Made by a program: the position numbers
IMG/VR virus record: IMGVR_UViG_2811995276_000001
Strand: one strand, 5' to 3'
DNA length: 64,000 nt
From: a virus
Lineage: Duplodnaviria; Heunggongvirae; Uroviricota; Caudoviricetes
Shown here: in pieces, positions 42,001 through 45,000 of the stretch
How positions within the stretch are numbered: the stretch's first letter is position 1
Layout: every line of letters starts with the position of its first letter

Positions 42001-45000
42001 GTTAGAAGAAGAAAATGAGCGCCTTAAAATGCAGTTAGAGAACTTAGAATTAAAGTTAAAACGTAAGTACTAATAATAAATTAGTTATCAATAATTGATT
42101 AATTATGAGGGTGTGATAAATTTTGCTGGTCTATGATGGGAACTTAGAGGAGCAAGGTGTTAAGACAGAATTTACTAAATCGGCTCCTAGAAAATGGACT
42201 AAAGAAGAAGAGGAATGGATTGTGGAGAAGAAGCTAAAAGGCCATTCTGTTAGTGAGATTGCAAAAGCTTTAAATAGAACAGAAGTTTCAATTTCAATTA
42301 AGTTAAAAAGGCTTAAGAAGAGAACTGAAACAAATACATATAATGAACATCACTTGGAAGAAAAATATGGAATGAACTCTAAGGTAGCGAGTGAATTACC
42401 TAAAAATGCAAGAGTATTAGACCTATTTTGCGGAGTTAATTCTTATTGGAAGAATACATATAACGATTTTAAAGTAACAACAAATGATAAAGACAAGACT
42501 ATCGATGCAGATTACAACATGGATGCGCATAAGTTAATATGCAAGCTTTATTCAGAAGGTCATAAGTATGATTTTATTGATTTAGATCCATTTGGTAGTG
42601 CATACGACTGTTTTGATTTAGCTATTAAAATGGCTAAAAAGGGACTATACATAACATTTGGTGAGATAGGGCATAAGCGTTGGAACAGATTAGATTATGT
42701 TTCGAAAAGATACGACATAAAAAGCTTAGATGAATTTAATCTTGAAAAGCTTATAGAGAAGGTAATGCTTCTAGGATTACGTAATAAAAAGACATTGAAG
42801 CCTAAATACATAGGAGAATATAGAAATATATCAAGAGTTTATTTTGAGATAAGTGATTATAAAGAAACGTCTCAATGGGTTGGTTAGCTCTTAAATAGAA
42901 TTCACATTAGATTATACATAAGTTTTTGATAATAGAAAGGATAAAATATAACATGTGCAATGATAAGAAAATAGTATACATGGCTGGACATATTTTAAAT
43001 GAAGCCATGGTTGATTACAGAGAGAAGCAACATAAGCAAGTATCAGAAATTAAAGGAGTAGCTCCTTATTCGCCACATCAAGATAAATCAATTAATGATA
43101 AGTCAAATGCCGTTCAAGAGGGATTGGCTGAAAGAATTTTAAAGAATGATTTTAAAGCGATTGAGCAATCAGATATCTATGTGTTCGATGTATTGAATGA
43201 GGGTTTGGGCACTATTGCAGAGCTAGGTATTGTTCTGGGAATGAAACAACATGCTAAAGAAACTATTAAACAGCTAGAAGATAGTGCTGATACAGTTGCA
43301 TTTGATTTCGAAGGTAACCTTACAGATTCGTATTATAATTTAATGGATGAAGTTGAATATCATAAAGCTATTCTCGATAAGCCAGTACTCTGTTATTGCT
43401 CAGATATTAGACAGGGGCACGGCAAGCCTTATAACGATCCTGACAGAGCGGAATATAGTACTAACCAGTTTGTTTATGGAATGGTATTAGAACTAACTAA
43501 TGGAGAAGGTTTTATTAGCTGGGAAGAAACTTTAAATAGGCTAGAAGATTTTGGAAATTAGTTAATCTTAATAATCATCATGAGATGAAGTTGATTATAA
43601 CTTGTAGTAAGTATTGCTTGATAAAAACGAATAAATTTTACTTTTATCCTCATTATGTATAGCTTGATATGAGGTTGAGGCATACTTATCTATCTCACAG
43701 TAATTCAAGACTTCTAAGTCATATCCTAAATTCTTAATTGCTGTTTCTGGTGCCCCTATACCAGAAAATAAACTTAACATTTTAACTTTTTTCAAATAAG
43801 CTCTCTCCTTGAATCCTAAGTATTTATATCATTGTCATGATAAAAGTAAAAATTTATTGGATGTAAGAGATGTTGACGGGACTATGTTCAAAGATATTGA
43901 TTTACTTTTCCATGGATCTCCATGTCAATCGTTCAGCACGGTAGGCAAACAAGAAGGTGGGGATAAAGACAGTGGGACAAAATCCTCTCTTATGTGGGAA
44001 ACAGTTAGGATTGTAAATGAATGTAGACCTAAGATTGTAATCTGGGAAAATGTTAAAGGAGTACTGAATAAGAAACATAAACATAATTTTGATACATACA
44101 TAAAAGAGTTAGAAGATATTGGTTATAAATCTACGTATAAGGTGATATCTCCCAGGGATATTGGAGAGGCGCAAAGTAGACCAAGGGTGTTTGTAGTAAG
44201 CACGATTAAAGGACAGTTTGAGTTTCCAAATATTGTGAAAAGCTATCAAAAATGCATATCGGACTATATGGAAACTATTGTAGACCCAAAATACATATTG
44301 CCTAAAAATATTGCAGAAACACTGGCATACGGTAATCCCAATTTTTGTGGACGCATGACAATTTTGAGGCATACAGATTTAGCTGGTTGTTTAGTAGCCA
44401 AAAGCGGTAGGGCTGCTAGAACTAATAATTTCCTACTTTATCAGCATGAGGATTACTCTAAAATGTCTAATGCCAAAGATATACGGTTTTTACTGCAAAA
44501 TAATGTACCTATTAGAAGTTTAACACCTCTTGAATATTGGAGACTTCAAGGGTTCAATGATGAGCAATTTTATATAGCACGTAAAGCGCTAGCAGATACA
44601 TATAAAAATGGAAACTTATCATTAACAGATGCTCAATTATATAAACAAGCTGGAAATTCTATTAATGTTAAGGTATTAGAAAGCTTTATTGACAAAGTTT
44701 TAAAAACACTATATTAAGATAAAATATAATATGTAAAATGGAGGGTTTTTATGAATAAAAATATTCCCGTATCTGGAAGTAATTTTATTATTCCAGAAAA
44801 TGAGTTTACAGCTACTAATATGAATAAATACACAAAGAAATGTATTGAAGATAAGTACACTAATGATATTAAAAATATCAACCGTAAAATTCAAGAAGCC
44901 GCAAAAGAAGGTAAATTTAGTATACAAATCAGAGGCAATGAGGATGATTTTAAATTAATCAGTATCTATTATTTAGAACGTTATTTCAAGATTGAATTCA

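Follow-up and report, generated by a model that had tools for sequence, protein, structure and literature searches.

Recurrent inversion of a 190-nt segment at a cytosine methyltransferase gene of SPbeta-like Staphylococcus prophages

The stretch analysed here, 64,000 nt of the IMG/VR virus record IMGVR_UViG_2811995276_000001 (hereafter the window, to whose whole length all coordinates refer), covers a portion of a large Staphylococcus hyicus prophage of the SPbeta-like type and harbors an orphan C5-cytosine (m5C) DNA methyltransferase gene that is split by an inverted segment of 190 nt. Comparison with the same locus in other staphylococci revealed that the segment occurs in both orientations, and we are virtually certain that its inversion is real and recurrent. 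Beyond this, we lean toward the view that the segment represents a selected, reversible inversion switch, a "partial intergenic inverton", acting on the prophage methylase. Such a switch had been proposed in a first-pass annotation of the window and is supported by the existence of full-length alleles, by the occurrence of both orientations on matched backgrounds and by purifying selection on the inverted copies.

In the window, the methyltransferase is distributed over two ORFs (open reading frames) on opposite strands. A 302-amino-acid (aa) ORF on the plus strand (43809–44717) matches positions 37–322 of the 324 positions of the Pfam DNA_methylase profile, and a 66-aa ORF on the minus strand (43795–43595), whose N-terminus reads MKKVKMLSLFSGIGAPE, matches positions 2–44 and contains LFSGIG, that is, motif I, placing this motif on the strand opposite to all remaining ones. 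The TTG start codon of the minus-strand ORF (43795–43793) is preceded by AAGGAGAGAG (43810–43801, minus strand), which lies 5 nt 5' of the start and reads as the ribosome-binding site of the methyltransferase. The ORFs and Pfam matches thus bear out the first-pass description of a split gene with motif I on the opposite strand, equipped with its own Shine-Dalgarno sequence and TTG start. The 66-aa product comprises methyltransferase residues 1–52, followed by 14 unrelated residues, IYSFLSSNTYYKL, and a stop codon contributed by the left flank. The 302-aa ORF carries 10 unrelated N-terminal residues and then the body of the enzyme from DKSK on, with the motifs PCQ (IV), ENV (VI), QxRxR (VIII) and GNS (IX–X), and has neither motif I nor a recognisable ribosome-binding site.

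The invertible segment itself (43649–43838, minus strand, inverted in the window) contains the ribosome-binding site, the TTG start and codons 1–48; these end with the residues NE, which directly precede the DKSK encoded by the arm, and include both motif I (LFSGIG) and the EID motif. It is bounded by a left inverted-repeat arm, AATAAATTTTACTTTTATC (43630–43648, with an exact core at 43636–43648), which is non-coding when the gene is uninverted, and by a right arm, GATAAAAGTAAAAATTTATT (43839–43858, core at 43839–43851), which lies within the coding sequence (DKSKNL). In the uninverted gene, one arm precedes the start codon by about 45 nt, and the other is situated in codons 49–54. The two arms match at 19 of 20 nt, differing by one T/A indel in a homopolymer run (T4 in the left arm, A5 in the right), and share a 13-nt exact core, with 190 nt between the cores. 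The repeats are therefore located at the gene breakpoints, as had been annotated, with lengths of 19 and 20 nt instead of the 21 nt given there.

When the segment was flipped in silico between the repeat cores, a single ORF of 341 aa resulted, covering positions 2–322 of the 324-position DNA_methylase profile, scoring 195.9 bits against PF00145 (cut-off 22) and presenting its motifs in the order LFSGIG (I), GSPCQSFS (IV), IWENV (VI), AQSRPRVF (VIII) and AGNSINV (IX–X). The flipped product is identical, residue for residue, to a deposited 341-aa S. hyicus "DNA cytosine methyltransferase" (P0122), which matches TIGR00675 (dcm) with 182 bits (cut-off 100.65). The earlier prediction that both arms read DKSK in frame and that a flip would recreate one continuous ORF was thus confirmed to the residue. 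Residues 4–171 of the methyltransferase align to residues 12–171 of M.HhaI, for which structural work has placed the AdoMet-binding motifs in the N-terminal region. Because this N-terminal part is missing from it, the 302-aa body alone should be inactive. The closest solved relative is the CpG enzyme M.MpeI (E = 5e-25, over residues 51–333 only), whose recognition region aligns poorly; solved structures were too distant for an assignment of target specificity, which we rejected.

We next consider the distribution of the two orientations. Relatives were gathered by exact-protein look-ups; scans of species-representative genomes and of IMG/VR gave nothing closer than 57% identity. Orientations were read from assemblies and represent the majority orientation only. 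The full-length allele P0122 is encoded on 12 contigs, and the 302-aa product of the window on at least 24 contigs (34 collection blocks) from many independent sequencing runs, some of these contigs being of chromosome length (2.5–2.8 Mb, e.g. CP087468.1). For S. hyicus and S. agnetis together, which encode five 341-aa variants and truncated forms of 302, 277 and 306 aa, rough contig counts gave about 23 full-length versus about 46 truncated forms, corresponding to roughly one third uninverted. S. pseudintermedius, for which 40 of 160 cluster members were read, has 342-aa variants alongside many 283-aa truncated ones, the commonest truncated variant being present in 87 blocks, and its uninverted fraction is smaller than that of S. 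hyicus/agnetis. S. chromogenes has a 340-aa and a 285-aa form, and S. delphini a 275-aa form, truncated forms being the only ones seen in this species. In every truncated case that was fetched, motif I lay directly upstream on the opposite strand, between the same repeats. Conversely, the segment corresponding to 43649–43838 is oriented oppositely to that of the window in the loci L039, L071–L077 and L082.

A natural negative control is provided by a lineage of S. haemolyticus, whose methylase shares 73% protein identity. Both arms are absent there, and 24 of 24 contigs read as uninverted. In the same lineage (L054–L059, 7019–8545), the methylase overlaps by 8 nt a second DNA_methylase gene downstream, encoding 507–508 aa, which is absent from the switch-bearing lineages.

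Evidence for recurrent inversion comes from pairs of loci that differ in orientation and in little else. For S. hyicus, we compared 22 loci after normalising orientation, using the segment of 190 nt with 2,813 nt of upstream and 3,850 nt of downstream sequence; differences are given below as upstream/segment/downstream. The inverted locus L045 (ERR1212654) and the uninverted L074 (ERR1212655) exhibited zero differences at 6,853 compared positions, and the same was true for the inverted L079 and the uninverted L077, a background separated from that of L045/L074 by 37 changes on either side of the segment. The window itself (identical to L042, DRR171252; inverted) differs from the uninverted L073 by 3/0/5, and the inverted L047–L049 differ from the uninverted L075 by 1–2/0/2–6. 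As these four S. hyicus backgrounds are tens of substitutions apart, at least four independent flips must have occurred. In S. chromogenes, the inverted L040 and the uninverted L082 differ by 2/0/0, that is, by two differences over about 6,800 positions. The region is strongly mosaic in S. pseudintermedius, and none of the on/off pairs there was identical; the best was L053 (on) versus L091 (off) with 1/0/45. Uninverted loci nevertheless sit among inverted ones. The 6.8-kb flanks contain no other rearrangement. Rather than one fixed orientation lacking any full-length allele, we thus observed, for S. hyicus as well as S. chromogenes, the two orientations on backgrounds that are identical or nearly so, and S. 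pseudintermedius likewise has the two.

These data bear directly on the concern that the window might present a dead, rearranged pseudogene fixed in one strain, or an assembly artefact arising at a short inverted repeat. The gene is indeed broken in the window, which contains no intact copy. Yet the inverted state recurs on the at least 24 contigs mentioned above, matched uninverted alleles exist, and the repeat, with 13 nt of exact identity and 20 nt at most, is shorter than assembler k-mers and reads, so that the orientation should be supported by reads. Moreover, all inverted copies could be rebuilt into intact genes. For 27 of 27 inverted loci from three species, in silico flipping restored ORFs of 340–342 aa free of frameshifts and stops, and dN/dS between inverted copies ranged from 0.02 to 0.34, with dS reaching 0.37. 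Given this integrity and the purifying selection, the inverted copies are not pseudogenes, and we regard the pseudogene or artefact explanation as extremely improbable. In the simplest reading of these sequence comparisons, the copies would pass back through a functional state, and the switch would run in both directions.

The products of the inverted locus are consistent with an off state. The junction adds 13–14 unrelated residues before the stop, yielding N-terminal pieces of 54, 65, 66 or 72 aa, and since these tails differ among species, no conserved alternative module is joined by the flip. A shufflon or module-swapping inversion was accordingly rejected, no alternative silent module being joined after flipping. 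In the truncated body, neither the start nor the N-terminal extension is conserved between species, gene callers choosing proteins of 275, 283, 285 or 302 aa. With motif I and the translation signals facing away from the body, the annotation of the present orientation as an off state is supported. The inverted state might instead be active, if the 66-aa and 302-aa pieces reassembled as a two-piece enzyme or if the body had a methylation-independent DNA-binding role. Both pieces are open, the N-terminal one retains its own ribosome-binding site, and two-piece m5C methyltransferases are known, namely the naturally split M.AquI and an engineered split M.HhaI. However, the body has no recognisable ribosome-binding site and an unconserved start and extension, the N-terminal piece runs against the operon with no promoter predicted and ends in a C-terminal tail that is different in every species, and 52 residues of a Rossmann fold would hardly suffice for unaided complementation. 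We therefore judge an active inverted state to be very unlikely.

The inverted repeats themselves gain their importance from position and not from length. In a Markov-1 simulation of the window, about 2.7 exact 13-nt inverted repeats are expected per 64 kb at such spacing, and the window has two. The occurrence of one of them at the exact breakpoints of a split gene, together with a flipped product identical to a real protein, is beyond chance. The only other exact 13-nt inverted repeat in the window (gap of 50–500 nt), TATGCATAACTTA, is located at 8207–8219 / 8279–8291 between the AAA_24 gene and the next ORF, with 59 nt between its arms. At the switch, every locus has its breakpoints inside the 13-nt core, and the T4/A5 difference between the arms keeps to the outer flanks in both orientations, which places the crossover inside the inner 13-nt core.

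To assess arm conservation, we aligned eight sequences from three species over 5.6 kb; 43% of the columns are invariant. An invariant run of 17 nt, three synonymous third positions among them, lies in the right arm and ties for the longest of the whole alignment. The left, non-coding arm contains a 14-nt invariant run, tying for the longest outside the methyltransferase coding sequence, with the exception of one ribosome-binding region. Both runs are among the six longest of about 1,000. The DNA 5' of the gene around the left arm is otherwise poorly conserved, and in S. hyicus the arm has been kept although the adjacent small ORF has decayed. This ORF, of 58–59 aa and ending in the left arm, is present in S. 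chromogenes (L040 5599–5778) and S. pseudintermedius, and a remnant is found in S. hyicus (window 43560–43630). S. hyicus strains are also polymorphic for an indel of about 18 nt near the left arm (L043/L049 2750–2790), the arm itself being unchanged. In S. pseudintermedius, the left arm (near 5760–5781) has T4 in some strains and T5 in others, the right arm being always A5; the strains fall into two left-arm groups (L050, L083, L084, L087, L088 and L090 versus L051, L085, L086, L089, L091 and L092), and T5 extends the exact repeat from 12 to 17 nt.

A weaker inverted repeat at homologous positions was also observed in two lytic Sextaecvirus phages of S. chromogenes, PT94 (L060) and PT1-1 (L093), whose methylase is 69% identical. 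There, a 26-nt, 73%-complementary repeat (2932–2957 / 3140–3165 in PT94, likewise in PT1-1) is the longest non-overlapping inverted repeat of the region, and its arms exhibit compensating changes (left ACT to GTT, right AGT to AAC). This covariation is suggestive only, and we gave it no weight because the predicted RNA has a separate local hairpin at each arm.

Several observations weigh against a dedicated switch. The repeat by itself is statistically ordinary for DNA of 30% G+C, and further copies of the site in the window are not above chance (11 matches at up to 3 mismatches versus 7.3 expected; the best, at 3858–3874 inside an MrpR-like gene, is likewise within chance). Folding predictions for the uninverted mRNA show the arms paired in the main long-range stem, so that their conservation could have another cause. 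No consensus promoter or terminator was found in or near the segment (a weak extended -10 element, TGATATAAA, read by eye, fell short of the prediction thresholds and was dropped), and no recombinase is encoded within about 12 kb of the switch, the three of the window lying 12–43 kb off and having other obvious roles. Furthermore, zero differences over 6.85 kb bound the divergence of a pair to decades only, and a modest rate of spontaneous inversion combined with selection could yield the same population pattern. Together, these points describe an alternative in which the locus is a recurrent hot spot of non-programmed inversion, the repeat existing for some other reason, such as an mRNA stem at the translation start or chance plus coding constraint. 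Flips would then arise by template switching during replication or by short-homology recombination, possibly aided by phage annealing proteins, and selection in lysogens would enrich the favoured state, mostly off. The predominance of the off state in assemblies is what would be expected if loss of the methylase were favoured, and the population data require only that the flip rate be high relative to the single-nucleotide polymorphism rate. On the other hand, at least four flips in S. hyicus and more in two other species occurred within flanks that are otherwise unrearranged, and the left arm remained conserved while neighbouring DNA decayed. In addition, 13 nt of identity is very short for efficient homologous recombination. 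The intactness of inverted copies under purifying selection at a dS of 0.37 also suggests that they returned frequently to the on state. Weighing both sides, we consider a non-programmed hot spot the less likely explanation but a serious alternative.

Turning to the genomic setting, the nearest deposited relatives of the prophage are "SPbeta-like" Staphylococcus and Mammaliicoccus phages of 124–147 kb, and none of the SPbeta-like Staphylococcus phage genomes on deposit has the methylase gene. The switch is flanked by genes for a nucleoside deoxyribosyltransferase and for a 93-aa protein showing no Pfam match. It is embedded in a DNA-metabolism region that also encodes DNA polymerase III alpha, a ligase, a DnaB-like helicase, RecJ-like, AAA_24, Gp157 and YopX proteins, and ribonucleotide reductase with NrdI. 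Two of these, the AAA_24/Sak4-like protein (7155–8168) and Gp157 (46829–47338), are predicted annealing proteins.

The three recombinase-related genes of the window are all on the plus strand and are, at most, candidates. A Xer-like tyrosine recombinase (899–1948; Pfam Phage_integrase 8e-10, weak NCBIfam XerC/XerD matches) might act as an invertase in trans, but a specific tie to the switch was rejected, the gene being a core gene of SPbeta-like phages of Staphylococcus, Mammaliicoccus, Bacillus and Lactococcus, including phages that lack the methylase. An MrpR-like protein with a recombinase core-binding domain (3536–4555; Pfam MrpR_N_CB 8e-19) likely has another role. The third, a large serine recombinase of 519 aa (56538–58097; Pfam Resolvase and Recombinase), is located at the right end of the prophage. 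Eleven nucleotides separate the end of its gene from an ORF of 128 aa, which matches only positions 289–385 of 387 of the sodium:dicarboxylate symporter family. As this 3' fragment adjoins the recombinase gene, the prophage ends there and the recombinase is probably the integrase; the prophage is inserted in the host symporter gene, with its right end near 58098–58108. The sequence beside the serine recombinase at this end bears no likeness to the repeat. The first-pass annotation had pointed to this protein as the sole recombinase in the vicinity; its presence was confirmed, and nothing links it to the switch. A Hin/Gin-type serine invertase system likewise found no counterpart, since the 190-nt segment codes only for the methyltransferase N-terminus and the sole Resolvase-domain protein is 12 kb away. 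The catalyst may lie outside the window or in the host.

For the inversion switch that we favour, the following mechanism can be outlined. The segment has flipped repeatedly in several Staphylococcus species, and probably in both directions. Recombination within the 13-nt identical core flips the 190-nt segment of the 341-aa orphan methyltransferase gene, presumably catalysed by a trans-acting, phage- or host-encoded recombinase whose gene is not adjacent, in which case the inversion would be site-specific. In the on state, the gene is whole and co-directional with the surrounding operon. In the off state, as in the window, motif I and the translation signals point away from the body, and neither piece would make active enzyme. 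The repeat pair would be kept by selection as a switch, its pay-off being heterogeneous cytosine methylation of phage and host DNA. This heterogeneity might, for example, serve as a hedge against two kinds of host, one restricting unmethylated and the other m5C-modified DNA; alternatively, the lysogen might be spared the cost of methylation. In its most specific form, a large temperate Staphylococcus phage would use the conserved 190-bp flip to maintain mixed m5C-methylated and unmethylated genomes in lysogens, and perhaps in virions, as a hedge between Type II and m5C-dependent Type IV (SauUSI-like) restriction, the catalyst being a recombinase that acts in trans over tens of kilobases, for example the Xer-like core one of SPbeta-like phages, or the flip occurring without a dedicated invertase. 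We put this complete scenario forward tentatively and consider it rather unlikely to hold in full.

The closest parallel in size and repeat length is offered by the RecV-dependent switches of Clostridioides difficile, at cwpV, flgB and cmrRST, which likewise consist of segments of about 150–200 bp with imperfect repeats of about 20 bp in AT-rich Firmicute DNA, and whose recombinase is distant and acts in trans. Unlike the staphylococcal segment, those of C. difficile lie between promoter and ORF and act via transcription or termination instead of splitting a coding sequence, and their recombinase has been identified. With regard to the enzyme, the Bacillus phages of the SPbeta group (SPbeta, phi3T, rho11 and SPR) carry self-protecting m5C methyltransferases, and thus resemble the present prophage as large temperate SPbeta-like phages with an orphan cytosine methylase. 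We know of no report that places these methylases, or PamA of Staphylococcus aureus, under the control of DNA inversion. PamA, as cited in a review (PMC13076061), is a prophage methylase able to alter host phenotype and is comparable in this respect.

Inversion control of methyltransferases is already established. Gene-altering programmed inversions swap modules in Type IIG, DISARM and BREX methylases (Milman et al. 2023, PMC9881135), inverton-like events occur near Type I–III systems in gut bacteria (PMC11741434), and invertons with one repeat inside a gene have been termed "partial intergenic" (Chanin et al. 2023/2024, doi 10.1101/2023.03.11.532203). The staphylococcal switch fits this last class. 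As in partial intergenic invertons and gene-altering inversions (PMC9881135; doi 10.1101/2023.03.11.532203), one repeat lies in the coding sequence and the other outside, and the product is changed; restriction-modification genes, including Type II, are enriched as targets of gene-altering inversions, for which variation between strains was also used as evidence. However, those inversions mostly exchange modules of an expressed gene, either C-terminal or specificity-determining, for those of a silent partial copy, usually with a recombinase nearby. Here, the N-terminal catalytic end flips along with the translation signals, no alternative module exists, the outcome is on or off, and an adjacent invertase is lacking. 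Staphylococcus and cytosine methyltransferases are mentioned neither by Milman et al. 2023 (PMC9881135) nor by Chanin et al. The "epigenetic invertons" of Type I hsdS genes, such as SpnD39III of Streptococcus pneumoniae (Huang et al. 2020, PMC7672463), change genome methylation by inversion and create epigenetically distinct subpopulations, as we predict for the present locus. There, target-recognition domains of a specificity subunit are shuffled, changing an N6-methyladenine (m6A) motif, and a tyrosine recombinase is usually adjacent; here, a single-subunit m5C enzyme would be turned off by separation from its motif I. Finally, phasevarions involve phase-variable Type III mod and other methyltransferases (reviewed in PMC11868660, PMC13076061), and share with the predicted switch the random on/off switching of a DNA methyltransferase and the resulting genome-wide change in methylation. 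Classical phasevarions differ in relying on slippage in simple sequence repeats, in using m6A enzymes and in being chromosomal, and by definition they control a regulon. None of the papers covered by our literature search mentions an inversion switch of this kind on a single-subunit m5C methylase. What sets the present case apart is the combination of a single-subunit m5C enzyme, a flip of the N-terminus with its translation signals, an on/off outcome and a Staphylococcus prophage without an adjacent invertase.

If the switch works as we propose, carriage of the prophage would render cytosine methylation of host and phage heritable but unstable in a group of veterinary pathogens comprising S. 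hyicus (exudative epidermitis of pigs), S. pseudintermedius (canine pyoderma), S. chromogenes, S. agnetis and S. delphini. This would bear on phage host range and the design of phage therapy, on barriers to horizontal gene transfer and genetic manipulation in these species and, possibly, on gene expression in lysogens. For annotation, the data imply that the N-terminally truncated methyltransferases deposited beside a small "hypothetical" gene, which account for about two thirds of the copies in S. hyicus and for most of those in S. pseudintermedius, are not pseudogenes. To our knowledge, invertons have hardly been described in staphylococci, and a conserved switch lacking an adjacent invertase represents a tractable case for studying trans-acting or unconventional inversion in these bacteria. 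Should the methylation-hedging interpretation hold, an m5C methylase controlled by inversion and, in staphylococci, an epigenetic bet-hedging switch of a phage would be described here for the first time.

Several further features of the prophage were observed. Just upstream of the switch lies a variable DNA-modification island (L040 2444–4966; L050 4880–5557; L083–L086 at about 4082–5575; window 42123–42887), which contains a Methyltransf_25 gene, an Asn_synthase/QueC-like gene and a second m5C methylase in S. chromogenes, one or two N6_N4 methylases or an HNH gene in S. pseudintermedius, and a TRM-like methyltransferase with an HTH region in S. hyicus. A cargo block on the strand opposite to the phage genes (20374–24295, minus) encodes three trypsin-like serine proteases (20374–21195, 21440–22156 and 22160–22909), a secreted protein without family match (22967–23533) and an ADP-ribosyltransferase exoenzyme (23549–24295; Pfam ADPrib_exo_Tox 1e-55). 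This block looks like a set of prophage-borne virulence factors; S. hyicus is a species known for exfoliative toxins. A second minus-strand group (26782–28825), consisting of a small unassigned ORF (26782–27255), a protein with an Ntox21 toxin domain (27258–28007) and a subtilase (28004–28825), may constitute a toxin/immunity or secreted-effector module. Lastly, the large subunit of ribonucleotide reductase (48639–51896) has 1,085 aa in the window, compared to 696 aa in some related strains and 1,081 aa, with Intein_splicing and LAGLIDADG_3 matches, in others, a size difference that reflects an intein presence/absence polymorphism within one phage lineage.

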